Assembly (NCBI GenBank): GCA_013415865.1
Contig: CP058896.1
Coordinates: 267,957 to 331,956 of the forward strand
Length of the DNA stretch: 64,000 nt
Source: Methanomassiliicoccales archaeon
Lineage (GTDB): Archaea > Thermoplasmatota > Thermoplasmata > Methanomassiliicoccales > UBA472
Direction: 5' to 3'
Part shown: one piece after another, positions 1,087 through 53,218 of the stretch
How the letters are laid out: every line of letters starts with the position of its first letter
How positions within the stretch are numbered: position 1 is the stretch's first letter
The notes under the pieces: model-generated
The model's database searches: none
The model's input: the letters and a program-made list of their open reading frames with translations, nothing else
What the model was told of the DNA's origin: nothing
Position numbers and translations under genes: made by a program

Positions 1087-1131
1087 CGTCATCATTATAA
1101 GTGGATAAATCATGGCATGGCCAAGTGATGA

Positions 1132-20200: not shown

Positions 20201-20793
20201 ATTTCATTTACGATAAAATCGTGAAAAGACGAAGAAGGGCCATGCACCAGATGCTTGAGCTTGCGAGGGTAGGGACCGTCGACATCGACAGGTTCAAGCT
20301 GGATATGCTCGCATTCTTAGAAGAATCGGAGTTCACGAAGCCGGTGGCCGGTCTTAGCTTGAGCGATGACCCGGATGCATGGCTCGAGATCCTGGAAAGA
20401 TTGGATGGCGTAGACTCGATGAGAAAGCTTCTGGGGGCGTGCAGGAGACAGTTAGAGGAAACGCCTGGACATCCCGGGTTGCTGATAATGGCCGGGTTCT
20501 GTGCCCTGAGCTATTCGAATGTGGCCAATGGCATGAAGGACCTTAAGAACGGATTATTTGCCTTGAAAGATTCTGTTTCGGACGATCATACCATAATGAA
20601 GACGGTCGAGAGGTTTTTCGAGATCTCGGAAAGGGTCCAGCCCTCGAAAAGAGAGTACATTCTCGAGGCGCTTCTGGAGCTTGGGATGCCGGATGTTGAT
20701 AGGTTCGTTTACAAGAGGTCCGGTCAATTTGGATACGCGCATCTGACCAGTCTTGTTAAGATCACTTCGGAGCTGGGGATCGGGAGAGAATAA
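17263..20793 (+). CDS. RecQ-family SF2 helicase with N-terminal PD-(D/E)xK-like (DUF2726/DUF559-like) module and unassigned C-terminal domain
   Basis: The helicase motifs are LLPTSGGKSLCYQL (I), VVDEAHCVSEWGHDFR (II), LTGTAS (III), HSFGMGIDKPDIRF and QQAGRAGRDG (VI). The N-terminal module is RVDFAIEV..KIVIEIDDSSH..KQRDKDLSNAKWKVYRL. No RQC/HRDC is recognisable. The start lies somewhere between TTG 17263 and ATG 17344, and a TATA-like AAATTATATC sits at 17211-17220. Confidence 0.8.
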   Translation: MRGENDIVGVNDNFQNCPWFFPCHTSSMVMSSVLKLIRCDDYSDDKLRKLSAHSSGFSIIGEREIENTEVDEERAFLAAVLSKIYQRGSPSPCSLETERRLLMRCQELSILKFEESNRSGSIVFDVTGSVEGLSSMLESCFFPELLVEGKDLDGLIELYLSICTGPEKEFFNKICSALPLKNLALMIVPQRTFRSMGIDGHVSERVDFAIEVPDLDRGGWLKIVIEIDDSSHNSTQFKDKQRDKDLSNAKWKVYRLRTNEKHKWDRAVENIAIDLITAVTPNIIEASVRLNKMEEKRRNAIRDMVLVPMAESKIAFLASRGLVRNVGQGIIVKSPRNLDLEPAVRSVMDTIRHIISLYNLNVHFKVKLGPEGTVDYYACPHPSMWSSVDPGERLCPIVVSPEVVERMIVADPVPLYYKGFEETVDRSLRFFLQNIFRKYDFRYGQLEIIRRALSLEHVVGLLPTSGGKSLCYQLSSILQPGISVVIDPLRSLIVDQVDNLNRMGMDRIGVIISRGRKNISEESALREKVMDNMMGGMYQFIFIAPERLQIQKFSKLIMEQIEIPITYCVVDEAHCVSEWGHDFRTSYLNVGRRFAERDIDRPNWRTHFIALTGTASRNVLVDIMRELMIEDEEAIVEPRSYDRPELHFSVVKVSKEERIGTIVRLVSRIVEKNFYESRKVPSGLIFTNFAGSEIGVIPLKNAIRSELSGVKVDCYAGKNPENRDNNETMKCDWEDQKINVQSDFKNGAVDILTCTHSFGMGIDKPDIRFTINAMLPRSIEEFYQQAGRAGRDGNDSDCYLVFSDDEPGLSDQILDDNRTPLDDISFRVNNLDWERRDDALHNTWFLSAAFQGVEEEKQQLRYLLRREIELVLKDESKLRVTSIPFLLSRKDPFNGKDETVLEKIIYRLQTIGAIRDYYKDYNGQKFTLHLIEFDSSSIYEQTRKHLGRYISEGEIEKRLGRASRSDPYEAVEHCGGVLIDFIYDKIVKRRRRAMHQMLELARVGTVDIDRFKLDMLAFLEESEFTKPVAGLSLSDDPDAWLEILERLDGVDSMRKLLGACRRQLEETPGHPGLLIMAGFCALSYSNVANGMKDLKNGLFALKDSVSDDHTIMKTVERFFEISERVQPSKREYILEALLELGMPDVDRFVYKRSGQFGYAHLTSLVKITSELGIGRE

Positions 20794-20794
20794 A

Positions 20795-21673
20795 ATGCCA
20801 TTGGAAACAAATGAGGAATCGCGGCGGGAGCTGATATTGAAGGCGGAAGAAGCGATACGACTGCTTGCGGAAGAATATGGAAAGGCATGTCAAGTATCAA
20901 ATTTCGCAAAAGAATCGCTGGACAGGATCACCGAGGCCAGAAACACCCTGACTGAAGCATTGTCATTGATAGAGAACGCGCAGATGAACCTTATTGAGGA
21001 CTCCAATAGGTCCAGGGAGGCTCTGGAATCTGCCAATAAGAGAAACGAGGAGGTCCGAGTAAGTCTTTTATCCTCTCTCGTCACGATCGAGAGGCTGGAC
21101 AAGGAGGTCCAGTTGCTTCAGAGGGACCTGTCCTCGGCGATCACGGAGCTCAAGAGAAGAGACAAAGAGATCTTGGACCTGATGATCGAGAATAACGAGA
21201 ATATAGTTTCTACCATCGAAAAATTGAGCGGGTCGGTCCAAGTAATTTTTGATGAGCTTAAGAAAAATTACGCACAATTGACCCTGTTGATAGAACAGGG
21301 GGATAGATCAATTCAGGATCTGATAAAAGACCGGGAACTTAAGTTGTCCTTTAAGATCGATGAGAGCGGATCGAAGATCGTAAATGACCTTGCTGCGTTG
21401 AAAGAGAAGCTTGAAAACTATTATGGGCAGATGGTCAATAATTTCAAAGATACAAATCAGGAAATTACGCTCAAGAACGAGCTGTTGGTATCTTTATTGA
21501 AGACGGAATACGAGAGCCTCATCGAAAGGTTCGAACGATTGGACAAAGAGAGCAAGGCCCGTCACGAGGAAGTGATGAACAAGCTTGAGCTTGCCCGATA
21601 TGCAGCAGTGTTCTCGGCCATATCTGTGGTAGGGATCGCTGGAGTGTTGATAATTTTGTTCATGGGAGGGTAA
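20795..21673 (+). CDS. Tail-anchored coiled-coil protein, partner of the helicase
   Basis: ATG 20795 is 1 nt after the helicase stop codon. The 292-aa protein is almost entirely charged heptad-like helix (EEAIRLLAEEYG..., LDKEVQLLQRDLSSAITELKRRDKEILDL...). It ends in a single TM, AAVFSAISVVGIAGVLIILFMGG. Confidence 0.6.
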   Translation: MPLETNEESRRELILKAEEAIRLLAEEYGKACQVSNFAKESLDRITEARNTLTEALSLIENAQMNLIEDSNRSREALESANKRNEEVRVSLLSSLVTIERLDKEVQLLQRDLSSAITELKRRDKEILDLMIENNENIVSTIEKLSGSVQVIFDELKKNYAQLTLLIEQGDRSIQDLIKDRELKLSFKIDESGSKIVNDLAALKEKLENYYGQMVNNFKDTNQEITLKNELLVSLLKTEYESLIERFERLDKESKARHEEVMNKLELARYAAVFSAISVVGIAGVLIILFMGG

Positions 21674-21798: not shown

Positions 21799-23310
21799 GT
21801 GCTCGGTCGTAAGTCCTTACTTGTGTTCCTCGGCAGCACGATATCCTCTGCCCTGGGGTTCATCTGCCTGTTCTTCATAACCAACTACGTCGGGGTGGAC
21901 AAGTACGGCACCGTCATCCTGATGACCTCCATACTTACAACGATAAACGTCATCGCGGACCTGGGCTTCTCGAGCGCGCACATCAAGAGGATATCCGAGG
22001 GTCAGGACGTCGACGATTGCGTCTCTACCTTCGTCCTGATAAAAATTAATTTGACCTGCCTGTTCGTCATAGCGTCGTTCCTTGCGCTGTTCATCTGGAT
22101 GGCGGCGCTTGGGAGGACCATCACCGACGTATCTAGGGATGTCTTCCTGGTGATGCTGCTGTTCGAGGTGTTCGTGAACCTATCGAACATCGCCGTGATA
22201 ACATTCCAGGGAAGGAGCGAGGTCGCGAAGGTCCAGTTCCTGCAGATACTGAACCCGTTGGTGCGGTTGCCTTTGGTGGTGCTCATCGCGTTCGCAGGGT
22301 CCAGCGCGGTTTTGCTAGCGGTGACCTACATGCTCGGCGCGATGGCGATGATGATAGCCTCATTTTTAATGATCAAGAGGGCGAGGTTCAGATGGAAGAG
22401 GCCCACCCTGTTCCGTTCGTACCTGACCTTCACCGTCCCGATCATCGTTGTGACGATAGTGTCGACGTTGTATCTCAACATCGACAAGATCATCATAGGA
22501 CTGGCGATAGACAACGTCCACGTTGGTTATTATTCGACCGTGCAGACGTTCCTTGGTGTCATCGCGGCCATCGGGACAGCGGTGTCCGTACTTACGTTCC
22601 CGAACTTCTCGTACCTCTTCGGCCAAGGTAGGGTCTCGGAGGTAAGAGAGAAGGCCTTGGCCGCCGAGAGGTATATATCGATGGTCTCGCTGCCGTTGGT
22701 CATTGTGCTGGTCATGTTCCCAAGTGAGGTACTGTCGACGCTGTTCGGCCCTGACCTTGCTGAAGGCGGGGATGCGCTGAGGTTCCTTGCCATTGGAACC
22801 TATATTGTGATGATAAATCAGCCGTACAGCTCGCAGCTGCTTGCGGCGAACAGGCCAGATATACTTGCGAAGAGCACGATAATAGGGTTTGCCATCGGGA
22901 CGGGCCTCTTCCTGCTTCTGATCCCGAAGGAGCTCTATGGAATAAGCACGATGGGGATGGGACTGGCCGGGGCAGGGATCGCAATAATAATGTCGAACCT
23001 GGGCCAGACGTTAATTGTAAGAAGTGCGGCGAAGGGGCTTTCAGGTTTAGCGCTCAACATGAGAATGTCACTTCAATTCTTGACGGCAATTTTCATTGGA
23101 ATATTATCACATGTTGTTTTCTTTTTAATGGATATCGAACCGTTCTTATCTATCCGATTATTTTTTGTAGTATTGGGCATCCCAGTTTTATTTTATACTT
23201 TATTGATTATATTTAACGAAGTTTCAAAAGAAGATATAAAATATTTTAAAGAATTAATAAATATTAAAAAAATGGTCCAATATATTATAAATGAAGCGCG
23301 AAATAAATAA
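21799..23310 (+). CDS. Wzx-like oligosaccharide/polysaccharide flippase (MOP/MATE-like superfamily)
   Basis: 503 aa with at least 12 hydrophobic helices. The N-terminal pattern SSALGFICLFFITNYVGVDKYGTV...DLGFSSAHIKRISEG is typical of polysaccharide biosynthesis (Wzx) proteins. The last ~90 codons switch to very AT-rich codon usage. Confidence 0.7.
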   Translation: MLGRKSLLVFLGSTISSALGFICLFFITNYVGVDKYGTVILMTSILTTINVIADLGFSSAHIKRISEGQDVDDCVSTFVLIKINLTCLFVIASFLALFIWMAALGRTITDVSRDVFLVMLLFEVFVNLSNIAVITFQGRSEVAKVQFLQILNPLVRLPLVVLIAFAGSSAVLLAVTYMLGAMAMMIASFLMIKRARFRWKRPTLFRSYLTFTVPIIVVTIVSTLYLNIDKIIIGLAIDNVHVGYYSTVQTFLGVIAAIGTAVSVLTFPNFSYLFGQGRVSEVREKALAAERYISMVSLPLVIVLVMFPSEVLSTLFGPDLAEGGDALRFLAIGTYIVMINQPYSSQLLAANRPDILAKSTIIGFAIGTGLFLLLIPKELYGISTMGMGLAGAGIAIIMSNLGQTLIVRSAAKGLSGLALNMRMSLQFLTAIFIGILSHVVFFLMDIEPFLSIRLFFVVLGIPVLFYTLLIIFNEVSKEDIKYFKELINIKKMVQYIINEARNK

Positions 23311-24051
23311 TAATTCTATTTAAATATTGGGGTAATCATAATTAAATCATTGTGATATGAAAAAAATATTCTTGACATTCAACTAGCCAGGCTAGTGATA
23401 TAAATAATAGTGTATCTAAGAAATTAAACTTCCTCCTTCATACTTTCTGTAATTTATTAGGGAGCAATCAGGCGTAATGGGTTTATACATTAAGATAATA
23501 TTAATATAGTAATATTCTAAATAGAGCGTTAAAATATCTCGAGGGCACATATTTTTTCGAAAGACGAATGATATAAAACCTCGATATACGCAATTTCAAA
23601 GCTTGAAGGTTCTGTAACAGCGGTTATTGTAGCTATTATACTAAAACTATTTTTATGATCGGTGTTAACCTTATAAATTATACTAAGTTCCAAACATCGT
23701 TCGACAATCCTTTGGATCAAAATTTATAATAAAGGGACGGCATGTGAAACGAGTGATGTTGAATTTATAAAATATGGCTCTAGCATGTCTTACCGAATGT
23801 GATGAAATATTAAAATTAAATAGAGATTATATAATGTTTCCTCCTCGAAAAAATTGAAGTGTCTGATGCTAAATAATATTCTTTATTTGTTTCTTCATTT
23901 TATCCTTTTTTAAAATGGCGTTTAAAAAAAATACATGAATAAATTATATAAAACAAAATTATCTGCGTATAATAGATTAAATAAATCTTTAATTTTATAG
24001 TCGACTCGATGTATAAGATTGGGTAATTTTAAATTGAAAATCGGTGAAAAT

Positions 24052-25446
24052 ATGCATGTAACTGCAATAATTTTAGCTGGTGGTGTCGGGAAAAGATTTG
24101 GGCTTGATGTACCAAAACAATTTGTAAAGTTAGCTGGTAAACCAATTATTTCGCATACCATTGACATATTTGAGAAAAATAGTATGATTAAAGAAATTAT
24201 AATTGTAGTTAATAAAGAATATTATAATTATTTAAATAATCTAGTAAAAAGTGGCCACGATTCAAATAAAATTAAAATAGTGGTAGGTGGTGATACTCGT
24301 CAAGAATCTTCATTCAATGGATTATTAGCTTGTTCAAAAAGTACTACTCACGTACTAATACATGATGCTGTTCGTCCATTTATAGACCAAGAAATTATTT
24401 ATGAATGCATTTTGAAACTTGAAGAATATGATGCAATTGATGTATGCATTGATTCGTCAGATACTCTAGTCGAAATTAATGAAAACAATGAAATCATCAA
24501 AATACCAAATAGAACGTCGATTAAAAGAGGACAAACCCCCCAAGCTTTTAAATTTGATGTGATTTTTAATGCACATAAAATATGCCAATCAAAGGGAATA
24601 CAGAATTCTACGGATGATTGTAACCTTGTATTACAATCAAATTTATGCAAAATACATGTAATCAATGGATCAAACCATAATATAAAGATTACTAATCCTA
24701 TTGACATCTCAATAGCAGAGAAAATTTTTCAAATTAGAGAGAAAAAAAGTCAATTGCTTAGTTATGATGATTTATTGCATAAATTGAATAATAAAGTGAT
24801 AGTAGTTGTGGGAGGAAGTTCTGGAATAGGTAAATCAATATGTGAGATTGGGAACAAACTTGGATCTGTTACCATCCCTTTGTCTAGATCTAATGGATTT
24901 GATGTTAGAAATCCAGAAACCATTAAATTTCATCTAAGTAAAATTTATAAAAAATATGAAAGAATCGATGCTGTAGTGATATGTGCGGCAATTCTCCATC
25001 GAAATAAATTTGAAAACTTTACCGATGATGAAATTAGAGAATTAATAGAAATCAACTTGACTGGGAATGCATATGTGGCAAAATATTCTATACCATATTT
25101 AAAAAAGACAAATGGCAAATTAGTTTTTTTTGCTTCGAGCTCATATTATAAGGGAAGGGGCGAATATTCGACCTATAGCGCAACAAAAGCTGGAATAGTA
25201 AATTTAATGCAATCGTTATCCGAGGAATTAGAGGACAAGGTTAGCGTTTTGGCCATTAATCCTCAAAGAACGAAGACACCATTAAGAACACGTAACTTTG
25301 GGGACGAGGATATAGATACATTGTTATCTGCGGATTTTGTAGCGTTATCCACATTAAATTCAATTGCTAAGGAAGGGAACAATGGTTGCATAATCGATAT
25401 AAGATTGTCGGACGAAAAAAAAGGAAGCCTTAAATATAATGAATAG
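24052..25446 (+). CDS. Bifunctional IspD/TarI-like cytidylyltransferase + short-chain dehydrogenase/reductase (CDP-ribitol-synthase-like architecture)
   Basis: Start at ATG 24052 (MHVTAIILAGGVGKRFGLDVPKQFVKLAGKPII = IspD/TarI nucleotide-binding loop). The C-terminal half has the SDR motifs VVGGSSGIGKS (TGxxxGxG-like) and YSATKAGIVNL (YxxxK). Confidence 0.75.
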   Translation: MHVTAIILAGGVGKRFGLDVPKQFVKLAGKPIISHTIDIFEKNSMIKEIIIVVNKEYYNYLNNLVKSGHDSNKIKIVVGGDTRQESSFNGLLACSKSTTHVLIHDAVRPFIDQEIIYECILKLEEYDAIDVCIDSSDTLVEINENNEIIKIPNRTSIKRGQTPQAFKFDVIFNAHKICQSKGIQNSTDDCNLVLQSNLCKIHVINGSNHNIKITNPIDISIAEKIFQIREKKSQLLSYDDLLHKLNNKVIVVVGGSSGIGKSICEIGNKLGSVTIPLSRSNGFDVRNPETIKFHLSKIYKKYERIDAVVICAAILHRNKFENFTDDEIRELIEINLTGNAYVAKYSIPYLKKTNGKLVFFASSSYYKGRGEYSTYSATKAGIVNLMQSLSEELEDKVSVLAINPQRTKTPLRTRNFGDEDIDTLLSADFVALSTLNSIAKEGNNGCIIDIRLSDEKKGSLKYNE

Positions 25447-26752
25447 ATTTAAATTTATTTTAAATAACTAGGTTCAGATATTTATTTTTGGATAATACAG
25501 TATTTTCCACTTCTTCAATTAAGATAGATATTTAATCGTAATGTGAATATTGTGATTTGGATGCACTTCATGGTTAAAGATACATCAGCTGCGATATGGG
25601 AATATATAGCTGCCCTATGGAGTTTATATTGATAAGCCTCTTTGGGGGATTTTCAGATATATGCGAAGAGATTGATTCTCGGCAAAGATGGCTATATAAA
25701 TATTAAATATATCGTCTCGTTCGCATTTAATATTGGCTCATAGCGCTCGCTCAATCGGTTCTATCTTCTCTCTGGAAATGGAGCTCGCAAAATTGACCAG
25801 ATGAAATCGAGGATGACGATGCAAGGAAAAAAGGGTGGTTTTTCGGTCGTTAATCACACATTGATTGAAAAGACCCAGAAGCAAATTGTCGGCAGGTTTG
25901 ATTTACAATCATTATGAGGATAGAAGCGTATGATTTTACAACTTTGTGGATTGTCCTAATTCGATAGGACCGGATACGGTTTCTTTTTCCTATTAGAACT
26001 ACCTAAAGTATAATTTGGCAAGGAAGATAAATTGATTTTCAAGACGAGGGTTGAACTAGCCGTCCAGTTAATTTAGAAGGTAAAATGCTGGAGCGATCGG
26101 ACTTCTTTCTATTCGGTGCCCAAATTGGAGGAATTGGGTGTAACGTTCAATCTTGTCGATGATGCCATGTTTCCTTTAAGAGGCTCAATCTAATCTTTTC
26201 GACGAGTTAGAAGGCCAAGTGATGTGGCTGGTGTAGGTGTTCCCACTATTGAATCTGAACGATTCCTGGAAGCTTGACGACCATTATTAGGAGGGTTACG
26301 ATCGTTTCTATGAGTTCTTCATGGAGCTGGGCAAATGTCTGGAGAAGGTTAAGGTCGATTTCGTGACTGTCGGCAAGCATTTTCGAGCGACTATCTCGGA
26401 CTAGTTGGAGATGTGCAGAGAATGGGATGGAAAAGTGTAATGTGAAGTGGAAGATTGCAGATGTTCTACCGAGACCACAAGCCGTACCCCGAATATGTGA
26501 ATATCAGGTCAGAAAGATTGGTATAAGAGTTATGAATCTCCTTTTAAGTTATTATAACCTACAATATCCTAAAAGGTATTGATCAGTGCCTCGAAATTCA
26601 AAAATCAAATTAAATGGTGTATACGCCATCTAGCTTTTTTGCCAAATACAGAAACATTGAGCGTTGCAGGGATTGATTTTCAACGATTAGATGGTTGAAA
26701 TTGTAAAAGTGTGGTATAAAATAAATAATAATAGAAGAATTTCGATTTATCC
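25447..26752. other. 1.3-kb ORF-free, stop-riddled segment of intermediate GC (probable decayed gene remnants)
   Basis: The track has no ORF of 60 aa or more in any frame across 1.3 kb. G+C is visibly higher than in the surrounding island genes. My translations give only short fragments (e.g. MELGKCLEKVKVDFVTVGKHFRATISD) separated by stop codons. Confidence 0.35.
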
Positions 26753-27793
26753 ATGGATGTACAAAATAATAAAACAATATGGATAGATTTAAAATGTCCT
26801 TCAGATGTTCATTTTTTTTATTCTGTTATGATTAATTTAAATAAGTTTCGGTATTTAATAACGACTCGAAAAAGAGCTGAAACACATCAATTGTCTATTA
26901 ATTATGGAATGAAAGGAATTCAAATAGGTTCTGATCATCAAAATCACTTATTGAAGGGCATGTATTATTTTGATAGGACCTTCAAACTTTCAATGATAAA
27001 AAAAGAATTTGATGCAATATTCTCATTTGAAGATGCGATTGGTCCAATATTAGGAAAATTTAAAAATAAGCCATCATATTTATTTTGCGATAATGATTTA
27101 AAATTGAATAAATCTTTTTCTAAATTTCAAAAAATAGAATCTAAGTTTAAGAATTTTGCAGATTATTTAATTATTCCTGAAATTTCTATTAAAGAATTTA
27201 TTAATAATTATTCAAATCCTAAAATAATAACATATAATGGCTATAAAGAAAATATTTATATCTCAGATTTTGAGCCGGATCCAAATTTTGATTTATTGGA
27301 TTACATTCCAAATTACGTATTAATACGTCCAGAAGCCATAGGGTCATTTTATGTTGCAGAAAAAAAGAGTATAGTTCCTCAGATTGTAAAATTATTAAAA
27401 AAAGAAAATTTTAACATAGTATATTTGCCTCGCGATCCTCAAGATTTTAGCTATGTTTCTAAAGATGAAGTTTTTATTCCTCCCAAAATTTACAAGGGTT
27501 TGGATTTGTGTTATCACAGTCAGGCAGTGTTAACTGGTTCCGGAACATTAGCTAGAGAGGCGGCAATTCTCGGTAAGACCTCAGTATCTTTTTTTCCTGG
27601 TTCAAAATTATTATCGGTAGATTCAGATTTAATAAGAAAGAAAAAAATGATTCACACTAGAGATCCTAAAGAAATCGTCAATTATATTTTAAATAGTAAA
27701 GAAGATAAAAATTACAATTATAAAACTAACTCAATAAAAGTGCGCGATGAGTTGATATCGAAATTAGGTGAAACATTAGATGAAGAGTTGTGA
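26753..27793 (+). CDS. DUF354-like GT-B-fold protein (putative glycosyltransferase/epimerase-like)
   Basis: 346 aa. The N-terminus KTIWIDLKCPSDVHFFYSVMINL matches the characteristic start of archaeal DUF354 proteins as I remember them. The C-terminal segment AVLTGSGTLAREAAILGKTSVSF is GT-B-like. Confidence 0.5.
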   Translation: MDVQNNKTIWIDLKCPSDVHFFYSVMINLNKFRYLITTRKRAETHQLSINYGMKGIQIGSDHQNHLLKGMYYFDRTFKLSMIKKEFDAIFSFEDAIGPILGKFKNKPSYLFCDNDLKLNKSFSKFQKIESKFKNFADYLIIPEISIKEFINNYSNPKIITYNGYKENIYISDFEPDPNFDLLDYIPNYVLIRPEAIGSFYVAEKKSIVPQIVKLLKKENFNIVYLPRDPQDFSYVSKDEVFIPPKIYKGLDLCYHSQAVLTGSGTLAREAAILGKTSVSFFPGSKLLSVDSDLIRKKKMIHTRDPKEIVNYILNSKEDKNYNYKTNSIKVRDELISKLGETLDEEL

Positions 27794-28880
27794 TTTAAAG
27801 TTATTATTTATAACTCCATATCCACCCGATGTGGGAGGAATATCTACTTATTCAAGTACATTAATAAGCCACTTAAATAATAAAAATTATTCTATAAGGA
27901 TATTAAGAATATATATAGTAAACAAAACCATGTTAAGTTATATTAATAAGATGAAATCGATAGTGTGTAATATCAATATATTATTAAAAGATGAGAGCAA
28001 TCTTGTTCATATTCAATCATCATCAGATTTTTCATTTATTGAAAATTCAATATATTTATTTATAATACGAATCTTAAATAATAAAAAAACAATATTTCAT
28101 CTCCATTCTCCAAATTTCACAACATTTTATCAAAGAAAAAATAAATTTATTAAAAAATATATAAAATTAATATTTAAAAAATCTGATAAAATTATTGTTT
28201 TATCAAATAAAGATCGCCAAGTGTTATTGAATATGAAAATTGAAGAACGAGATATATATTTAATAAGGAATTTCAATGGAGTTCAGAATGTATATAATGA
28301 TATAAAAACAGCAAAGATGTTAGAAATAAATGAAACTAACAATGTAATTTTATCAATAGGAAATTTAGAAGCTCGAAAAGGATTTGATATCCTAATTAAA
28401 TCCCTTTTTGAGTTACGCAAAATTCGAACAGATTTTGTATGCTATATTATTGGAAGCGGAAAAGAATATGATTCATTAAATAATTTAATAGATGAATTAA
28501 ATTTAAATGATAATGTTCGTTTGGTTGGGCGGATTAATTCAAAAACCCTAATTGATTATTATAAAAAATCTAAATTGGTTATTTTAACTAGTTATGACGA
28601 GGGATTGCCAATGGTGATGTTTGAAGCACTATCATTTGGCAAGCCTTTTATTGGAACAAATGTAGGTGGCATCCCAGAGATTATTAATTCAAATAATTAT
28701 GGTTATATTGTTGAACCTGGCAATATTAAAGAAATTACTTACTGTTTAAACAGTGCACTGAATAAAGAATGGGATGCTGATTTAATTTTGGAATATTCAA
28801 ATCAATTTTCCATTGATCGGATGTTGGAAAAAATAGAACAAATTTATTATGATTTATATATGGAAGGATTAAAACTATGA
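27780..28880 (+). CDS. Glycosyltransferase family 4 (group 1)
   Basis: 366 aa. The N-terminus KLLFITPYPPDVGGISTY and the C-terminal motif SYDEGLPMVMFEALSFGKPFIGTNVGGIPEII (E-x7-E) are both family signatures. It overlaps the upstream gene by 14 nt. Confidence 0.8.
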   Translation: MKSCDLKLLFITPYPPDVGGISTYSSTLISHLNNKNYSIRILRIYIVNKTMLSYINKMKSIVCNINILLKDESNLVHIQSSSDFSFIENSIYLFIIRILNNKKTIFHLHSPNFTTFYQRKNKFIKKYIKLIFKKSDKIIVLSNKDRQVLLNMKIEERDIYLIRNFNGVQNVYNDIKTAKMLEINETNNVILSIGNLEARKGFDILIKSLFELRKIRTDFVCYIIGSGKEYDSLNNLIDELNLNDNVRLVGRINSKTLIDYYKKSKLVILTSYDEGLPMVMFEALSFGKPFIGTNVGGIPEIINSNNYGYIVEPGNIKEITYCLNSALNKEWDADLILEYSNQFSIDRMLEKIEQIYYDLYMEGLKL

Positions 28881-30019
28881 TTTTAAATGAGAAAAAAGAG
28901 AAACAACAGAAAAAAATTCACATACTGTTTTTTGGTATGCCGCCTGGCAATAATTTAATTGACGGTTATTCTAAATGGTTTTCACCAATTATAAAAAATT
29001 TGAAAAAAAATGATAGATTAAATGTTTATTATATTAATTACAACAAGATATTGAACGAAAAATTTGAAATATTACGTTTTATATTAATTCCATATTTAAT
29101 ATATAAGTTACACAAATATAAAGATGAAATAGACATTGTTCACGTTTTACGACAAAATGCATGGTATTACAATATTTTTTATGCTCTAAAAATAAAAAAG
29201 AATATAACCCCATTGAAAATAATTACTGTTCATGATATTTATACAGCGAAAGGAAAGGTAAATTTTAAAATTATTAAAAACATTGCTCACGCAGATGCAA
29301 TATTTTGTCCATCCAACTATACAGCAAATGATATTCGTACAATTTTGAAAATTAACAAACCCGTATATGTTACTTATAATCCTTTAGATCCATCATTTTA
29401 TTGTATGGGTACTGATGATAAATTAAAAATGAGAAAAAATATTTTAAAAGAAAGATCGTCTCGCAAAGTCTTGTTATCTATAGCATCAGAAATGCCCAGG
29501 AAAAATTTTGAAAAATTGTTAGAAGTATTATTTCTATTTAATACTTCAATGAAGGAAAAGATACTATTGATTAAGGTAGGCCAGTTTACAAAATTAAGAT
29601 ATAAATATATTAATATTGCAAAAAAATTTGGAATAGAGAATGACATTTTATGGATAAATTATGCAAACGAAAAAGATTTGTTATATCTATATAATATTTC
29701 AGATATTTTTATTACATTAAGTGATGTCGAAGGTTTTTGTATGCCTTTGATTGAAGCCATGGCTTGTGGATTACCTATAATTGGGTCGAAATCTTCTGCC
29801 ATCCCAGAAATTGTAGGAAATGCAGGAATATTGGTAAATAATAATGATAATAAAGAAATTATTGAGGCGATAAACACATTGTTGTATAATATTGATAAAA
29901 GAAATGAGGTTATTGAAAATGGATTTAATAGAATAAGAGCATTCCACGAACAAGAAATAAGTAGAATATATTTTGAATCGTATTTAACAGCCTTGGAAAA
30001 GGGATTGAATGTTAAGTAA
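28877..30019 (+). CDS. Glycosyltransferase family 4 (group 1)
   Basis: 380 aa with the motif SDVEGFCMPLIEAMACGLPIIGSKSSAIPEIVGNAGILV. It has an ATGA start/stop overlap with the upstream gene. Confidence 0.75.
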   Translation: MILNEKKEKQQKKIHILFFGMPPGNNLIDGYSKWFSPIIKNLKKNDRLNVYYINYNKILNEKFEILRFILIPYLIYKLHKYKDEIDIVHVLRQNAWYYNIFYALKIKKNITPLKIITVHDIYTAKGKVNFKIIKNIAHADAIFCPSNYTANDIRTILKINKPVYVTYNPLDPSFYCMGTDDKLKMRKNILKERSSRKVLLSIASEMPRKNFEKLLEVLFLFNTSMKEKILLIKVGQFTKLRYKYINIAKKFGIENDILWINYANEKDLLYLYNISDIFITLSDVEGFCMPLIEAMACGLPIIGSKSSAIPEIVGNAGILVNNNDNKEIIEAINTLLYNIDKRNEVIENGFNRIRAFHEQEISRIYFESYLTALEKGLNVK

Positions 30020-31565
30020 ATTAAATAAAAAATTATCTATTATATCATTTTACACAATAATATCATCGATTTTATTGATTTCCATATATGATAAAGGTGT
30101 GACAGATCCATTTCTTCATGGACACATTTCAACCATCATTAAATTAATTAATAACCCAAATATTAAAATATTGAATTCCGATATGCAATTTTGGCCTCTG
30201 GCAGCTGTACAAATTATAATTTTTAATTTATTGTTTAACATATCTCCGATTACTATTCAATTTTTACCGTTAATTGGTTTATTATTTGTAATTACTTTTC
30301 CTTTATTATTGACTAGGTTTTTCCCTCTAGCAATTGGTATATTATTATCATTGATTGTACTATCATCATGGATATTACCCTACAATTATAGTGTATGGCC
30401 ACATGCATTTGGTTATTATTTATTTTTTATATTAATATATATAATTTATACATTTTACACTATAAAAAATTCTAGATATATAATTCTTATAATTATTTTA
30501 TTTATTGCTATTAATTTTTATTCTTATTCGACCTCTGTTTGGTCATTATCATTTTTAACTTTTATAATTTTATTTAATTACCTATACAATACATTTAAAT
30601 ATAAATCGAATTATAAATTTCAACCTTTTGCATTATTAATTGCTATGTTCGTCATATATTTTGGATTTAATAAAATCGTATATGAATCGTATTTTTCTAA
30701 TTTATATGATTCAGTTGGAGAGAGTAGCATATGGGAAAGATTAAATATATTTAATAATTTATTAATTTCTGACAATATTAAAACTATTTATTACACTAAC
30801 ACAAATTCTGAATTTATTTCGTATTTGGGATTAATTCGATTTCTTATCATTTTTATTCCAATAGTATATTTTTTAATCTATATCCTAAGAAATAAAGATG
30901 AATTAATTTCGAAACAATATTATGTATTTATCCCGTCCATGTTATTTATTTCTATAATTGATATCCTATCATATACGTCGGTATCCAGTAATGCGACTTC
31001 GTCGATTTTGTTCCGATATTATTCATTAATGGCCCCAATTGCAGTATTTTTTTCAATATCTGCATTGATGAAAAAAAGTCAAAGACGAGTCATAATTTTA
31101 ACAATCTATGCATCCCTAATTTTATTATTGTCAATTATAATATTATTTTCTAATCTTTACTCTACAAATATTGTCACTTCAAATGCGCATTTTAACAATG
31201 AAATTAATGGAATAGAGTGGACGATAGAGCATCGAGCTATTGGATCAATGATAATATCTGATCACCATACAGTAGGCCGAACGCTCATAGTTTCGAATGT
31301 TATCCATAGCGATTTGAAATTGTATCAAGACGTTTCATATTACAATGATTATTTATTTGAAAATTTTATTTCTAATAAGAAATCAATAATTGAAAATAAA
31401 TCGACACTAATCATAGTCAATAATGAAATAGAAATATTTCCAACGTCTGGCAATGATTGGATCAATTATCAGCCGCTCTTAAATTATAAACAAAATTATA
31501 CGATGAGTGAATATAATAATAAAGTATTTGATGATAGTAACATCAGGGTGTTTTTTAATAATTGA
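30009..31565 (+). CDS. Polytopic membrane protein, putative glycan polymerase or GT-C-type glycosyltransferase
   Basis: 518 aa with about 12 hydrophobic helices followed by a ~130-aa soluble C-terminal domain. Its position inside the glycosyltransferase operon suggests this role. I recognise no diagnostic catalytic motif. Confidence 0.5.
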   Translation: MLSKLNKKLSIISFYTIISSILLISIYDKGVTDPFLHGHISTIIKLINNPNIKILNSDMQFWPLAAVQIIIFNLLFNISPITIQFLPLIGLLFVITFPLLLTRFFPLAIGILLSLIVLSSWILPYNYSVWPHAFGYYLFFILIYIIYTFYTIKNSRYIILIIILFIAINFYSYSTSVWSLSFLTFIILFNYLYNTFKYKSNYKFQPFALLIAMFVIYFGFNKIVYESYFSNLYDSVGESSIWERLNIFNNLLISDNIKTIYYTNTNSEFISYLGLIRFLIIFIPIVYFLIYILRNKDELISKQYYVFIPSMLFISIIDILSYTSVSSNATSSILFRYYSLMAPIAVFFSISALMKKSQRRVIILTIYASLILLLSIIILFSNLYSTNIVTSNAHFNNEINGIEWTIEHRAIGSMIISDHHTVGRTLIVSNVIHSDLKLYQDVSYYNDYLFENFISNKKSIIENKSTLIIVNNEIEIFPTSGNDWINYQPLLNYKQNYTMSEYNNKVFDDSNIRVFFNN

Positions 31566-31577
31566 AGGGAGTTTAAA

Positions 31578-32618
31578 ATGAAAAAAATATTATTAATTGG
31601 TAACGCTAATTCTAATAGTAGTAGCAGAATATTTCAAAATTTAATCATAGACCTCATCCAACAAAATCGAAACATCACTGTCATCAGTGGTAATAAACCG
31701 CATAAAAATAACGTTGAATGGATTTCAGTATCAGAATTATCAGACATTTTTATAATAAATTTTATATTTATCCAATTAAAAATTATGAAATATATCTTAA
31801 AGAGTTATCATAATTACAACGACATTGTAATATTGATAGAACATTTTGTATTTATTAATATTTTATGTAGAATATTAAATATTAAAAATATTATTTTTGT
31901 GGATGGGAAATCAGTAAATACATTTTCATCAACATTTTCAAAGATTAGTTTTCATTATGCCAGTAAATTGATTGTTCCAGCAACGAGTTTAATTAAAGAC
32001 TGGAAAATTGAAAAATTCAAACCAAAAATTTTTCTATCGAAATATTATATTGATATAAATAAATTTTATATAAAGAAAGATTATAAAAATCGAAATAAAA
32101 ATATAGGTTTTATTGGTCGTTTTACTGAAGAAAAAAGGTTATCGTTATTTTTAGAATTTTGTTCATTAGTTATTAATATAGATCCAAAAATAAAGATTTA
32201 CATTGCTGGAGATGGACGATTAAAAAAAGATTTGATATACAACATTCAAAAATACAATATGGAGAATAAAGTAAGATTATGTGGTTGGATCGAAGATAAT
32301 AAACTAGCAGATTTTTATAACGAGCTTAGATTATTAATTATCACTTCAAAGGTAGAAGGAGGGCCACTAGTTGCATTAGAATCGATGTCTTGTGGAACAC
32401 CGATTTTATCTACTAAGGTTGGAATCATTGAAGATGTAATTGTGGATGGCATAAATGGATATATTTTTAATGAAGAAAATATAATGAATCAGGCGATTAA
32501 AGTTGTTAAGTTATTAAATTCCGAAGAATTAAATACTGTTTCTGTGAACGCAAGAAATACAATTGTAAATAATTATAGTTATGAATCTGGTATTCAAGAT
32601 ATGAATAAAATTCTATAA
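31578..32618 (+). CDS. Glycosyltransferase family 4 (group 1)
   Basis: 346 aa with the motif SKVEGGPLVALESMSCGTPILSTKVGIIEDVIVDGINGYIF. Confidence 0.8.
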   Translation: MKKILLIGNANSNSSSRIFQNLIIDLIQQNRNITVISGNKPHKNNVEWISVSELSDIFIINFIFIQLKIMKYILKSYHNYNDIVILIEHFVFINILCRILNIKNIIFVDGKSVNTFSSTFSKISFHYASKLIVPATSLIKDWKIEKFKPKIFLSKYYIDINKFYIKKDYKNRNKNIGFIGRFTEEKRLSLFLEFCSLVINIDPKIKIYIAGDGRLKKDLIYNIQKYNMENKVRLCGWIEDNKLADFYNELRLLIITSKVEGGPLVALESMSCGTPILSTKVGIIEDVIVDGINGYIFNEENIMNQAIKVVKLLNSEELNTVSVNARNTIVNNYSYESGIQDMNKIL

Positions 32619-33431
32619 CTGAAATTGAATGATATCATGACCCGAAATTCTTTCATTAATCGAAGGAATTTTCATGTAATCACCATACAACTGGGTTAGT
32701 ATCTCATTATAATGTTCTGGTATGGGGAATAATAAATTTTCAAATTTAATATAAATGGACTTATGAAACCATTCAATGGGATATGAAATGTGATCAATAT
32801 CATCAAATGGCCATGCACTGAAAATTACCAGATCCTCCTTCTTTTTTCTTGATAGTATAGAAGAATACCCTTTTTGGAATAATATTTTTGGGAGAGGGAC
32901 AAGACAACTTATAAAATTTGCAAACCCCTCATATTTAGAAGAATTTTTTACCCATATATATTTAATTAAACCAATATATCCAAAAATTGAAACTAATTTC
33001 CAATAAATATATCGTTCATATTTGTTAATCGGTGCATAATCTAAAGGAAAAATATCAATAAATATTCCTTTTGGAATGTCAAGTTTAGAGGTTGATCGTT
33101 CTACAAATTTTGTATTTAAATTCATCATTTTTGAATAATAAAATGGAAAATTTTTATGAGATTTAGAGGAGATTATTGAAATGTTAGGTGGCAACTCTGA
33201 CGCTGGTAATTTAAGTAATTTTTCATAATCATCCCTCATCATCACAAGATCCAAATCATCATCCCAAGGAATGAACCCATTATGCCTCACGGCTCCCAAC
33301 AACGTTCCACAAAATAAAAAATATTTTAACCCATGTTTCTTACAAATTTTATCAAATTCAATCAAAATTTCTAGTTCCTTTTGATGAATTTTATTAAGCA
33401 AATCTTCATTGATGACAAAAATTGTATCCAC
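32613..33431 (-). CDS. LicD-family phosphotransferase (phosphocholine / ribitol-phosphate transferase family)
   Basis: 272 aa with a GTG start. It carries the canonical LicD motif FCGTLLGAVRHNGFIPWDDDLDLVMMRDDYEKL. It is convergent with the last GT4 gene, overlapping it by 6 nt. Confidence 0.8.
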   Translation of the reverse strand: MDTIFVINEDLLNKIHQKELEILIEFDKICKKHGLKYFLFCGTLLGAVRHNGFIPWDDDLDLVMMRDDYEKLLKLPASELPPNISIISSKSHKNFPFYYSKMMNLNTKFVERSTSKLDIPKGIFIDIFPLDYAPINKYERYIYWKLVSIFGYIGLIKYIWVKNSSKYEGFANFISCLVPLPKILFQKGYSSILSRKKKEDLVIFSAWPFDDIDHISYPIEWFHKSIYIKFENLLFPIPEHYNEILTQLYGDYMKIPSINERISGHDIIQFQL

Positions 33432-33853
33432 CTCATATGATTATTATTAACTCCTTCTCATTAATGTTATCGAATTGATATTGATTGTAATATTTATAAC
33501 GCAAGCTTTAAATTTAATTCTTAGGCGATTAAGATGTGAATAATATACATATTTAAGGATATAATAAAACCTTTCGGTCTTCTGAATCAATATTAAAGTG
33601 TTTCGCTTTGTTATTGGTTCGCTTGGGATTAAATATAAAGGTTTTTATCTAATCATATGAAATTATTTCCATATCTATTTGAAGGAGTCAATGGAGCTGA
33701 CTATTCTCCCGTATCGCAGCTGATATGTCTTAAACCCCGAAATGCATCCCAAATAACAAATATTCACATTTCGATTAAATATCTATCTAGATTGAAAATG
33801 TGCAAAAATAGTATAAATTATAAATTATATTTATTTCTTTTTCTTTTCGTCCT

Positions 33854-33880
33854 TCTTTCCGCCCTTTCCGCACTTTCCGC
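33854..33880. repeat. 3 x 9-nt tandem repeat (N-CTTTCCGC) at right edge of the AT-rich island
   Basis: TCTTTCCGC CCTTTCCGC ACTTTCCGC occupies 33854-33880, preceded by the degenerate copy TTCTTTTCGTCC. It forms a GC-rich patch in AT-rich non-coding DNA. Confidence 0.5.
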
Positions 33881-34267
33881 ATGACATTGAATTCTCGCCT
33901 CCTCTTGGGACTTTACCCAATGTGGATAATGCATTTGTTGGCCAAGTATTTCAATCTATTCTTTTTAATCGAAAATTAAGAATAATATTATTTTTCAAAA
34001 ATTAACACTCATTGGCCTTGAGATCAATCAATCTCGAACATGATGACAGGGCCAATTGCCTGACATACAACAACAAAGGCCGACGGTCAACAACATTTAT
34101 TTAATTAGAACGTTATTTAATTGCTCGGGATGCACGGGACCCGTTCAGGCATGGACGGGCCTATCAGGCTGTTAGAATGCCATCGTCCCTCGTCCGATGG
34201 CACGATGCATACGAACAGCCCTACATGATGACGACATGCTCGCGTTCCCTCGTCCGGGAGCTGAGAG

Positions 34268-36058: not shown

Positions 36059-36682
36059 TCACCCTCTTCCTACGCTGCTCTCATCCTTGATCAGCCTCAG
36101 TTTTGCAACAAGAAGATCTACCTGGGTGGAAGGATCGCACTTTTTACTAGGGAGAGTTCGTCCTTGTGACTCGTGATGGACCCTGAGCTTTTTCGCGTTG
36201 GTCATGGCGATCTCTAACCTTGGGAACAACATCTGGAATACGTCCTTGGACTTTTCATAATCGGCTATGTACTTCCTAAGCTCCTTGATAACATCGCCAC
36301 ATGATCCGGATCAAGACCTGTGAAGGGTGAAGTGAAGTAGGAACCATATCTCAAAACAAGGGTTGGAGATAGCACAATGGACCGGGACCTTCGAACATAC
36401 AGCATCAATGATGTCCTCCTCACTATTGTTGTCCACATCAAAGACGCACCAGACCTCGTCTCCTCCCTGCAGGTCAAAATCTAATTCTTTAATCATCTTT
36501 TCCGCACTCGCAATCATACCTCTGGGGGTCCGGTCCTTAGACGGTTTTACTATGATGCTTATCCTATACTCCTTCCTAAAGCCCTCAAAATATTTTTTCT
36601 CTGTCCTGTTCCCCTCGCAGATTATCGCGATCCTTTTTCGCGGCGCTCTACAGGACTCTTTCCTTCGAGACCTGCTCGTCAC
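36059..36682 (-). pseudogene. RloB-like (Toprim-type) gene interrupted by an in-frame TGA at 36311-36313
   Basis: The GTG start at 36682 overlaps the ATPase stop codon (GTGA). The N-terminal part RKRIAIICEGNRTEKKYF...VWCVFDVDNN...AISNPCFEIWFLLHF matches the RloB motifs. After the TGA, the same frame stays open for 83 more codons (SGSCGDVIKELRKYIADYEKSKDVFQML...CDPSTQVDLLVAKL), which looks like an RloB C-terminus. The combined length of 207 codons is typical for the family. Confidence 0.65.
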
Positions 36683-37956
36683 ACCACCTTCCCAGAGATG
36701 ACTGGGATGGCACCATATCTCCCGGTCAGATACCCCTTTTGGATGTCCCTGTCCTTCCTCTCGCTGAATTCTGACAGGGAATAAAGTCGTGTGCATCCAT
36801 CTTCCACATCCTTCTCAGTGAACCATATCTGGTCCCTTCTGAAGAATTCCAGGTCCAAGAGATTGGTGTCATGGGAGGTGAATATCAGCTGCGCTCCATT
36901 GGTGTTCTGTTGCGGGTCGTGGAAAAGTTCGATCAAGAATCGTACTAGATGGTGATGGAGCTTCACCTCGATCTCATCGACCGCCAGGACCTTTCCGTTC
37001 CTAAGAGCGTCAACCCAGTACCCCATGAGCATGAAGAATTTTTTTGTTCCTTCGGATTCCTCTCTTAGGTCCAGGTCGTACATCATAAGATGGCCATCAC
37101 GATCTTTTATGGCGTGTTTCATCTTGACCTCATGCCTCATAAGGCGGCCTTTTGTCCGGGACAGGAGCGGTCTGAACTCTGGGGGTGCGCTGTTCATCAG
37201 ATTATCAAGCTCTTCTTCTGTGACCATTGTTCTATTCGTCTCGATCTCAACTATACCTAGGTCTGCTACGGTCATCGACCTGACGATGGCATCATGATTG
37301 TCTTTTGACGATTCCATTACATCTAGCGTATATTTTTCATCCATTGGATGAACCAGGTCGCTCGGTCCTACTGTCCGTAACCTCTCTCCGAACCACTCCA
37401 GGACGGCATGCGTCTTCTGATAGTTCATCTGCGTAGCCCGAGAGACGTAGAGCACGTTCTCGGGTGTCATCTCCTTTATCCGTTCTTGCTCCGCTTTGTC
37501 GGTCTTGAAGATGAACTGGTCCTCATGTCTTTCAAACACCGTCGCCTTCCGTCCTTTCGGATAATGGTAAAGGAACTCGGTTATGATCTTGGAACCATCA
37601 TATTCGAACCCATAGCGATATTCCTTGCCCTTCTCGATGAATGCTACCTCCAAGGCCGTGGGTCTATCTGAAGAGCCCTTGTCGAATTTGAATGGGAAAT
37701 ATGGTAGTCGCAATCCCCTCTGAAAGCTGTGAGAGTTCATGACCATGAATCCCATCAGTGATAGGGCATGAAGGACGTTCGACTTTCCTGAGGCGTTCGC
37801 CCCATATATTGCAGCAGACTTCAGGACCTTGTCACTTTTTAAGATATCGCTACTGATGAGGTTATCAGGATGGCTTTGATCGGAAGTTCCGACCATGCTC
37901 AATGTCGCCATATCTTTTATCGACCTGAAATTTGATACTTTGAATTCTAAAAGCAT
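36679..37956 (-). CDS. AAA/ABC-type ATPase (AAA_15/AAA_21-like), AbiLi/RloA-like partner of RloB
   Basis: Start at ATG 37956 (MLLEFKVSNFRSIKD...). The Walker A motif is IYGANASGKSNVLHAL. The C-terminal region VLAVDEIEVKLHHHLVRFLIELF...AQLIFTSHDTNLLD covers Walker B, the D-loop and the H-loop. Confidence 0.75.
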   Translation of the reverse strand: MLLEFKVSNFRSIKDMATLSMVGTSDQSHPDNLISSDILKSDKVLKSAAIYGANASGKSNVLHALSLMGFMVMNSHSFQRGLRLPYFPFKFDKGSSDRPTALEVAFIEKGKEYRYGFEYDGSKIITEFLYHYPKGRKATVFERHEDQFIFKTDKAEQERIKEMTPENVLYVSRATQMNYQKTHAVLEWFGERLRTVGPSDLVHPMDEKYTLDVMESSKDNHDAIVRSMTVADLGIVEIETNRTMVTEEELDNLMNSAPPEFRPLLSRTKGRLMRHEVKMKHAIKDRDGHLMMYDLDLREESEGTKKFFMLMGYWVDALRNGKVLAVDEIEVKLHHHLVRFLIELFHDPQQNTNGAQLIFTSHDTNLLDLEFFRRDQIWFTEKDVEDGCTRLYSLSEFSERKDRDIQKGYLTGRYGAIPVISGKVV

Positions 37957-37984
37957 TAAAATCACCAATTTTATGATTGATTTT

Positions 37985-37999
37985 TGTGATATTATCACA
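37985..37999. promoter_or_regulatory. Perfect 7-1-7 palindrome TGTGATAtTATCACA upstream of the AbiL-like operon
   Basis: It lies 29-43 nt upstream of ATG 37956, within AT-rich promoter-like DNA, and has operator-like geometry. Confidence 0.3.
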
Positions 38000-50017: not shown

Positions 50018-50215
50018 ATACACCCGCCCTTCTGATATCAATTTTGGTAACTGAAAAATATGTCTTTTAAATCCCGTCGATGCTCCTCAGGGCAAGGGAC
50101 GGTACGGGCGACCTGTTCGATACCCCCTAAATGGCTCACCTTCCATGTTCCTCTGTCGCCCGTATGCCCTCACAATGAGGCTGACCCCTTGAGACGAAAC
50201 GAAGAGAGGCTCTCC

Positions 50216-53200: not shown

Positions 53201-53218
53201 TACCGTAGGATAAAATGA
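50216..53218 (+). CDS. Multi-PAS sensor with degenerate histidine-kinase-like C-terminus
   Basis: The start is ATG 50216 (MSDRGYDD), with 50060 as an alternative. It has several PAS-like modules, an acidic linker (EQKEEEGGIISTIEEEVELLEIANDNNDVITEEEEQ), an N-box (ELVDNSFTHG) and a G1 box (EDDGKGI). I could find no clear H-box or G2 box. Confidence 0.65.
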   Translation: MSDRGYDDGEEDVMVKDDQDDYGPARRRSVFKDFCNVLKNFVTVDELDYKSEKDLVAHMDEDRAVMHTNKDLEVTYITSRCKELLGLKDEVIGKSVASAIPTSGMNKDHLEEVRRALVVNGERFRTLTVSYEKGRDLRWIQFSIEKSTDASGAVDKLIWTCKDVTGSVLFGSKGTKADQDVRPFIEAVPIPLLLLGKDLRPRSWNGPFLDLFGMESPASDRLLDLMLQKVVDAKKLRSALLSDPDDVVDPVTFDLVDGRRLIAVRSDKRIGEDVLWSFKEAMTKEAAADMGRKTVDNLPVNVWETDAGFKVLSATKGLERLLGHEVDDMVGYSLMNIVCDEDRDRLRSHLRSIKARPSSIEVRMLKADGDVLWMRLDCQRLSGDKGLQPGYMIVGGDVSEKKFMERSLSDLVYIFNFLMNHIHEGVWIIDQNNRLVQWNMMMESITGVHSSDALGKTLEDLSSECEGFDEVAKAARNVVEKKRSLPFNNQVEVSLRPVNGVGSDVVVEMSQMMTENGRVVMGVCSLKRPIVHAVPALGAGDVFKNIVDNSPDLIVDISTEGEVLYCNKTMEKIVGRDVGQLIGYSIKDLFMDWPVETYSQAAEGATLEPFDLDVVDTDGRTRTYHINRISFDKETSSSQFYGREMTEVIETKKMLGMSEEMKRLLLETHPAPVFLTDPLGSVVYMNREARRVFGSESEVGCLENILDPVGLAMYAECVDGMEKGGPMKRVSLDFHDREGRTHRADVDVEPIADKEGAIASYLVIFSNLEAPGTGEDGLARTLGTADDLSGPSWMEDRACLEVEQKEEEGGIISTIEEEVELLEIANDNNDVITEEEEQGPGQNGRAEVADEAAHDPTSSSPRWIPLRAICDAALEEHGEDAEPMGTIDNIEIFAVPDAMNVISELVDNSFTHGVTTSKVDVKFFIGDKGGYLVVEDDGKGIPPEKKGRIFDKGPGDEVHALCRLRNTLATTGIVIDEVSEQGRGARFELFIPDDRYRRIK

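Follow-up and report, generated by a model that had tools for sequence, protein, structure and literature searches.

In a window of 64,000 nucleotides from the genome of a Methanomassiliicoccales archaeon (contig CP058896.1, positions 267,957 to 331,956), a low-GC island carries a gene that fuses a cytidylyltransferase to a short-chain dehydrogenase/reductase (SDR) and, at its other end, a gene of the LicD phosphotransferase family. We read the fusion protein as a CDP-ribitol synthase and the LicD protein as a ribitol-phosphate transferase, both belonging to a surface-glycan cassette, and we put the probability of this reading at roughly 0.6. The product of the cassette would be a surface glycoconjugate bearing ribitol phosphate. 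The nature of the polyol and that of the donor used by LicD are predictions drawn from sequence comparison.

Looking at the fusion protein, its open reading frame (ORF) encodes 464 amino acids (aa) from an ATG, and the use of an upstream TTG at position 24019 would yield 475 aa. An earlier note on this DNA had described it as an IspD/TarI-type cytidylyltransferase joined to an SDR reductase and had pointed to motifs in both halves. This description is borne out, with matches to the Pfam families IspD (PF01128, E=1e-52, aa 3-226) and, in the C-terminal half, adh_short (PF00106, E=3e-28), and with the motifs AIILAGGVGKRFG at aa 5-17, PKQF at aa 21, GGSSGIGKS at aa 254 and YSATK at aa 375. When 27 fusions were aligned, the cytidylyltransferase residues G11, R15, K22 and K212, the SDR tetrad N335, S363, Y375 and K379 and the glycine-rich NAD(P) motif were all invariant. 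Both active sites are intact. The protein also passes the NCBIfam model for the D-ribitol-5-phosphate cytidylyltransferase subfamily (NF001183, compare the score of 170.4 with the cutoff of 166), and its best relatives of solved structure include TarI of Listeria, Bacillus subtilis W23 and Staphylococcus aureus. More than 2000 homologues, found in bacteria and in several archaeal groups, share the two-domain architecture, and the closest of them (53-57% identity) include Methanomassiliicoccales genomes and metagenome-assembled genomes (MAGs).

The link with a characterised enzyme goes through Escherichia coli. The window fusion is 40% identical to, and colinear over aa 1-451 with, a fusion encoded in kps region 2 of E. 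coli EC958; the N- and C-domains each show about 40% identity and the catalytic residues are conserved. EC958 falls in a K100-type clade, and the K100 capsule is a polymer of ribitol phosphate. The EC958 fusion gene lies beside a gene for a TagF-like polymerase. The bcs cluster of Haemophilus influenzae type b has the same layout, and there the CDP-ribitol synthase has been characterised by experiment: it is Bcs1, which turns ribulose-5-phosphate, NADPH and CTP into CDP-ribitol. In Bcs1/Acs1, in the EC958 fusion and in the window protein, an IspD/TarI-like cytidylyltransferase is followed by a classical SDR within 457-464 aa. The comparison with Bcs1 made in the earlier note therefore stands, whereas its parallel with TarJ fails for the C-domain, since TarJ is a medium-chain (zinc) dehydrogenase encoded by its own gene and not a fused SDR. 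The window differs from the Bcs1 and EC958 systems in three respects: the host is an archaeon, the partner of the fusion is a LicD protein instead of a TagF-like polymerase, and the assembly route relies on a flippase and a GT-C enzyme instead of an ABC-transporter capsule system.

We placed the N-domain in a neighbour-joining tree that comprised the fusions, three TarI proteins, human ISPD, the IspD proteins of E. coli and B. subtilis and six IspDs taken from related loci in which ispF is adjacent. The window protein grouped with three fusions from Methanomassiliicoccales (92% bootstrap). This clade was nested in a group that brought every fusion together with TarI and human ISPD (60% bootstrap), and all seven IspF-linked IspDs (the six from related loci and that of E. 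coli) remained outside this group. With moderate support, the tree speaks against a clustering with bona fide IspD, which the earlier note had named as contrary to its reading. The resemblance to human ISPD is limited to this domain, as the human protein has no fused reductase.

The LicD protein was also recognised as such in the earlier note, with its canonical motif and its place at the island end, and the assignment is confirmed: the match to PF04991 reaches 153.6 bits for a cutoff of 22.6 and covers profile positions 1-227 of 227. The protein carries GAVRHNGFIPWDDDLDLVM, with the motif WDDDLDL, and 12 LicDs show no variation at W56, D57, D58, D59 and D61. Its sole match to a solved structure is a local one of 44 residues to FKRP, at the WD.D.DL motif (WDYDVD in FKRP). 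That the family uses CDP-activated donors, as the earlier note stated, is published: CDP-ribitol is the donor for fukutin and FKRP and has been proposed as the donor for the LicD homologues of the enterococcal polysaccharide antigen (EPA), while Cps7C uses CDP-glycerol and Mf1 uses CDP-choline. The window LicD resembles fukutin/FKRP, the EPA homologues, Cps7C and LicD/Mf1 by its full-length Pfam match and its acidic WDDDxD motif, but its identity to all characterised members is low and its donor is a predicted one. In the EPA locus of Enterococcus faecalis, a LicD gene is likewise paired with a CDP-ribitol-forming gene.

A tie between the two proteins comes from their relatives. In all five of the closest relatives that were read (L002, L005, L006, L090 and L091, whose fusions are 53-57% identical to that of the window), a LicD gene lies directly upstream of the fusion gene and on the same strand, so that the idea, raised in the earlier note, that homologous loci might keep the two genes together holds for each of them. 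These adjoining LicDs are 35-39% identical to the window LicD and are its best matches among all the fetched data. Beyond this circle, about 67 other loci with a full fusion, nearly all bacterial, were available; a LicD gene was present within 10 kb in about 12 of them, and within 300 bp in eight of these 12. In the other loci, the transfer is presumably carried out by a different enzyme. In MAGs of Nitrososphaerales, the gene that immediately precedes the fusion gene is of the Glyphos_transf (TagF/TarL) type and not a LicD gene (L092, 4463-7099; L093, 95-2656), meaning that a second, teichoic-acid-like pairing of the fusion exists in another archaeal phylum. The features of the island and its borders are collected in Table 1.

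Table 1. Features of the island and its borders, in window coordinates.
Feature	Position	Strand	Evidence or remark
MOP-family (Wzx/AglR-like) flippase, 503 aa	21799-23310	+	Pfam Polysacc_synt E=5e-23
Low-GC compositional island, ~11 kb	~23000-34100		28% GC against 53% in the rest of the window (composition profiles, per-gene GC)
IspD/TarI-type cytidylyltransferase (aa 1-230) and classical SDR reductase (aa 240-464); predicted Bcs1-type CDP-ribitol synthase	24052-25446	+	464 aa
ORF-less stretch, 1.3 kb, no ORF above 85 aa	25447-26752		core (25700-26600) of ~40% GC, between island and host values
Imperfect inverted repeat of ~105 nt, left arm	25503-25606	+	blastn 84% identity, E=4e-24; also recovered by a repeat search and by alignment of the arms
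DUF354 protein, 346 aa, GT-B fold	26753-27793	+	Pfam DUF354 E=1e-28; AlphaFold pLDDT 92
GT4 glycosyltransferase, 366 aa	27780-28880	+	Pfam Glycos_transf_1 E=6e-39
GT4 glycosyltransferase, 380 aa	28877-30019	+	Pfam Glycos_transf_1 E=2e-31
Multi-pass membrane protein, 518 aa, with C-terminal soluble domain; predicted GT-C fold, small unnamed family	30009-31565	+	AlphaFold pLDDT 90, Foldseek
GT4 glycosyltransferase, 346 aa	31578-32618	+	Pfam Glycos_transf_1 E=2e-32
LicD-family phosphotransferase, 272 aa, convergent with the glycosyltransferase operon; predicted transfer of ribitol-5-phosphate from CDP-ribitol	32613-33431	-	Pfam LicD PF04991 E=1e-44
Imperfect inverted repeat of ~105 nt, right arm	33702-33807	-	270-375 nt upstream of the LicD start

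Between the fusion and LicD genes, five ORFs (DUF354, GT4, GT4, the 518-aa membrane protein and GT4) overlap or abut and therefore look like one operon, on the end of which the LicD gene converges. The earlier note had listed three GT4 enzymes, a flippase and a polymerase-like membrane protein; the GT4 enzymes and the flippase are indeed there, with domain matches that, like those of the fusion and of LicD, are much too strong to be due to chance, whereas the membrane protein shows a GT-C fold and not that of a Wzy polymerase. The DUF354 gene, the ORF-less stretch and the compositional contrast of the whole block are additions to that note. For the DUF354 protein, a search of the PDB by sequence only gave no match, and a Foldseek comparison of its model with the PDB placed it nearest to UDP-GlcNAc 2-epimerases and GT1 glycosyltransferases (TM-score about 0.7, 12-15% identity). 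We considered that it might be a hidden transferase of the TagF/TarL type (PF04464) and rejected this candidate, as Pfam reported DUF354 only and the top 50 Foldseek matches were epimerases or GT1 enzymes. Since the DUF354 protein is not TagF-like, LicD stands alone in the island as a candidate phosphotransferase.

The 518-aa protein had no sequence match in Pfam, NCBIfam or the PDB and belongs to a small family, for which about 123 representatives are known in a set of 1.84 billion proteins. When its model was compared with the PDB, the top 15 Foldseek matches were GT-C enzymes, including all 12 at E<=0.001 (STT3, PglB, AftA, ALG12, DPY19 and ArnT among them), with TM-scores of just 0.4-0.53. 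Its predicted fold is a multi-helix membrane core followed by a C-terminal soluble domain, as in STT3/AglB/PglB, ArnT and ALG/PMT, but at the sequence level there is no detectable similarity to any Pfam or PDB family. Going by this model, the protein is a GT-C transferase acting on the outer face of the membrane. A Wzy-type polymerase was rejected, given that no Pfam or NCBIfam match was found and that the significant fold matches were all GT-C. Because the 518-aa protein is modelled as a GT-C transferase, a long repeat-unit polymer made by a Wzy enzyme is not indicated, and neither is the repeat-unit glycan put forward in the earlier note. As a side observation, the sole word-indexed homologue of the 518-aa protein (P0122; L088, 5285-7606) lies beside a DUF1616 gene, GT4 genes and a flippase gene, and a DUF2206/DUF1616 pair is found near the LicD-fusion module of L002 (1-1458). 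Such membrane families of archaea may take part in the same step of glycan assembly at the outer face.

A pathway can be proposed from these assignments. The SDR domain would reduce ribulose-5-phosphate with NADPH to ribitol-5-phosphate, and the IspD-like domain would then use CTP to form CDP-ribitol, in the same order as in Haemophilus Bcs1. At the cytoplasmic side of the membrane, an oligosaccharide would be built on a polyprenol- or dolichol-phosphate carrier by the three GT4 enzymes together with the DUF354 protein of GT-B fold, the initiating enzyme being encoded elsewhere. LicD would transfer ribitol-5-phosphate from CDP-ribitol to a sugar hydroxyl of the lipid-linked intermediate with release of CMP, comparable to what fukutin and FKRP do and to what has been proposed for the LicD homologues of EPA. 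The MOP flippase would carry the lipid-linked product outward. There, the GT-C-fold enzyme would either pass the glycan to its acceptor or add a sugar from a lipid-phosphate donor.

The island is foreign-looking and AT-rich, and it was probably acquired horizontally. Its left GC junction lies inside the flippase ORF and the right one just upstream of a Na+/H+ exchanger gene. The flippase gene is thus compositionally chimeric: its 5' 1.2 kb has 54% GC and its 3' 0.3 kb has 30% GC, the drop occurring within positions 22900-23310. Its frame is nevertheless intact across the junction, and the protein aligns over its full length with the flippase of L005 (43% identity for aa 1-400, 31% for aa 401-503). 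This unbroken frame, together with the full-length alignment, argues for replacement of a cassette by recombination within a conserved flanking gene and not for a random assembly chimera. The LicD-fusion pairs of the relatives have an ordinary GC content, from 46 to 59%, and the low GC is therefore peculiar to the copy described here.

Two further features of the island bear on its history. An imperfect inverted repeat encloses 8.1 kb that comprise an ORF-less gap, the operon from DUF354 to the last GT4 gene and the LicD gene. If the segment were to invert across this repeat, as it could in principle, LicD would come to lie right behind the fusion gene. A recombinase was not found in the island. 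We rejected the repeat as a structured RNA, its fold z-scores not being significant, and as the end of a recurrent mobile element, its 30-mer core being absent from the JGI metagenome and IMG/VR contigs. The 1.3-kb stretch that follows the fusion gene is unusual for an archaeal genome by its lack of ORFs. It gave no Pfam match with six-frame fragments, no tRNA, no Rfam match at the gathering score or at E<=1 and no blastx match to any fetched locus, and it is possibly a degraded remnant.

Several observations weigh against the CDP-ribitol reading, and they are best discussed with the rival explanations. As regards the fusion protein, the comparison with Bcs1 was made through the homologue of the E. 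coli K100 locus and not with the H. influenzae type b sequence itself, the bootstrap values that separate the TarI/fusion group from IspD are just 60-85%, and the ispD domain model TIGR00453 is passed as well (199.9 for a cutoff of 181.3). If one adds that the IspD of B. subtilis is the second-best solved relative and that several public annotations use the IspD name, the N-domain might be taken for a true IspD of the methylerythritol phosphate (MEP) pathway, making CDP-methylerythritol for isoprenoids. We rejected this candidate as hardly credible: neither ispF nor any other MEP gene lies beside the fusion gene, while all the bona fide IspDs of the comparison set have an adjacent ispF, the domain falls outside these IspF-linked proteins in the tree, and it forms part of an SDR fusion encoded within a glycan gene cluster. 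Archaeal isoprenoids are made by the mevalonate route, which also speaks against a MEP-pathway enzyme. More weight, although still little, can be given to the possibility that the fusion makes another CDP-alditol, for instance CDP-arabinitol or the derivative of another pentitol or of a tetritol, and that LicD transfers the corresponding polyol phosphate. CDP-glucitol, CDP-mannitol and CDP-arabinitol are also products of IspD-like enzymes paired with reductases, and the nearest locus of known polymer type, that of K100, is just 40% identical at the fusion. In the glucitol and mannitol systems, however, the IspD-like enzyme works with an extended SDR (PF01370), in contrast to the classical SDR (PF00106) of the fusion, and both the colinear architecture, which fits the characterised type of CDP-ribitol synthase, and the passing of the ribitol-5-phosphate cytidylyltransferase model are in favour of ribitol; we consider a different polyol to be unlikely.

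As regards LicD, the contrary evidence concerns its coupling to the fusion. The two genes are 7.2 kb apart and on opposite strands in the window, and the only NCBIfam match of the protein is to the Mf1 cholinephosphotransferase model NF045866. Among 80 metagenomic relatives of LicD (28-37% identity), an IspD-like gene was found within 6 kb for 17 and for none of the other 63, so that the donor cannot be told from the LicD sequence alone. Since several donor types are known in this family, LicD could be uncoupled from the fusion and transfer phosphocholine, phosphoethanolamine or glycerol phosphate from a donor made elsewhere, CDP-ribitol then feeding another transferase or none. The score against the Mf1 model is, however, well below its cutoff (compare 119.7 with 225), and LicD was rejected as an equivalog of this phosphocholine transferase. 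Moreover, the most similar LicDs found are exactly those that adjoin the fusion in the relatives, and the island offers no other candidate phosphotransferase. The earlier note had pointed to choline-utilisation genes elsewhere as a sign against its reading; no choline-pathway gene (choline kinase included), LicC, TagD-like or CDP-glycerol gene was detected among the approximately 38 ORFs scanned with Pfam, a negative result that covers the 64-kb window and not the rest of the genome. In addition, 124 immediate neighbours of the 80 LicD relatives were scanned: nine match NTP_transf_3 and seven match IspD, which makes seven of the nine neighbours of nucleotidyltransferase type IspD-type, and the 25 most frequent families include neither choline kinase nor any family of the TagD type. 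An uncoupled LicD thus seems to us improbable, to about the same degree as a different polyol. Finally, and without excluding any of the other readings, the island might be a recent import that has undergone rearrangement and some decay and has ceased to work as a unit, or else an assembly chimera. The ORF-less stretch with its short broken frames and the diverged inverted repeats flanking 8.1 kb could indicate such a rearranged or decaying cassette; the GC gap of 25 points between island and host and the splitting of the LicD-fusion pair, unlike in all close relatives, point the same way. Against this, the nine protein-coding genes are all intact and full-length when compared with their families, the ORFs of the five-gene glycosyltransferase operon overlap tightly or abut, and the flippase frame is unbroken and aligns over its full length with that of a relative. 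NCBI also records the DUF354 product, at 100% identity, in a "Methanomassiliicoccales archaeon" MAG, on a contig of 1.82 Mb, which may stem from the same sample. A non-functional or chimeric island appears to us a little less probable again than the two preceding alternatives, and the CDP-ribitol synthase and ribitol-phosphate transferase pair remains the reading that we prefer.

Two more GT4-type genes are present upstream of the island (55-4041, plus strand) at a host-like GC of about 47%, one of which encodes a 969-aa protein with two GT-B modules, and these genes place the island in a broader surface-glycan region. Farther downstream on the same strand, positions 11774-15922 encode a 1382-aa papain-family protein (Peptidase_C1) that also has Ig-like domains and is probably a large protease of the cell surface; large Peptidase_C11 proteins are encoded near the LicD-fusion pair in the relatives L002 and L091. 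Just upstream of the flippase gene (17263-21673, plus strand) are found the genes of a 1176-aa DEAD/DEAH helicase with an N-terminal, endonuclease-like DUF559 domain and of a coiled-coil protein of 306 aa that is anchored in the membrane by its C-terminus. On the other side, about 250 bp past the Na+/H+ exchanger gene, a RloB-like gene and an AAA_21 gene (AbiEii/OLD-like ATPase) overlap slightly (36311-37998, minus strand) and resemble a defence module of a variable region. Beyond it lie genes for PAS-domain histidine kinases (44385-46598 and 50060-53218), followed by a CheA-like gene (53473-55407) and a CheB-like gene (58678-59715), and the organism probably has a chemotaxis system.

The literature searched contained no report of CDP-ribitol, of ribitol phosphate or of LicD function in archaea, in line with the remark in the earlier note that this chemistry is not well documented there. 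The novelty has to be tempered, as some relatives of the fusion are already annotated in public databases as ribitol-5-phosphate dehydrogenase/cytidylyltransferase or as "bifunctional cytidylyltransferase/SDR family oxidoreductase"; the copies in archaeal MAGs (Methanomassiliicoccales, Promethearchaeota and Nitrososphaerales) bear generic names. Bacteria and animals already provide examples of the enzyme families, of the fusion architecture and of the pairing with LicD; what is unusual is the archaeal host, in which they are carried on an evidently foreign cassette. Since bacterial precedents already predict the enzymology, the advance would be one of distribution and not of principle.

As a broader proposition, host-associated Methanomassiliicoccales methanogens would decorate a surface glycoconjugate with ribitol-5-phosphate by means of a conserved module made of LicD and a CDP-ribitol synthase, carried here on a foreign low-GC cassette. 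We advance this tentatively, at slightly less than even odds. If it is true, these archaea share a chemistry with bacterial teichoic acids and mammalian alpha-dystroglycan, and, with the TagF-linked version of Nitrososphaerales, which points the same way, polyol-phosphate glycans would be a feature of the third domain of life. Ribitol phosphate is part of the glycan of mammalian dystroglycan, where its loss leads to muscular dystrophies, and it is a major phage receptor and immune epitope. The low-GC cassette, with a junction inside the flippase gene, also illustrates how cassettes are exchanged at a surface-glycan locus of an archaeon. A conserved pair of LicD and CDP-ribitol synthase in Methanomassiliicoccales would offer a concrete, testable entry point into this chemistry, with two soluble enzymes and one glycan, and the result would matter for the way in which gut archaea appear to their hosts and to viruses.

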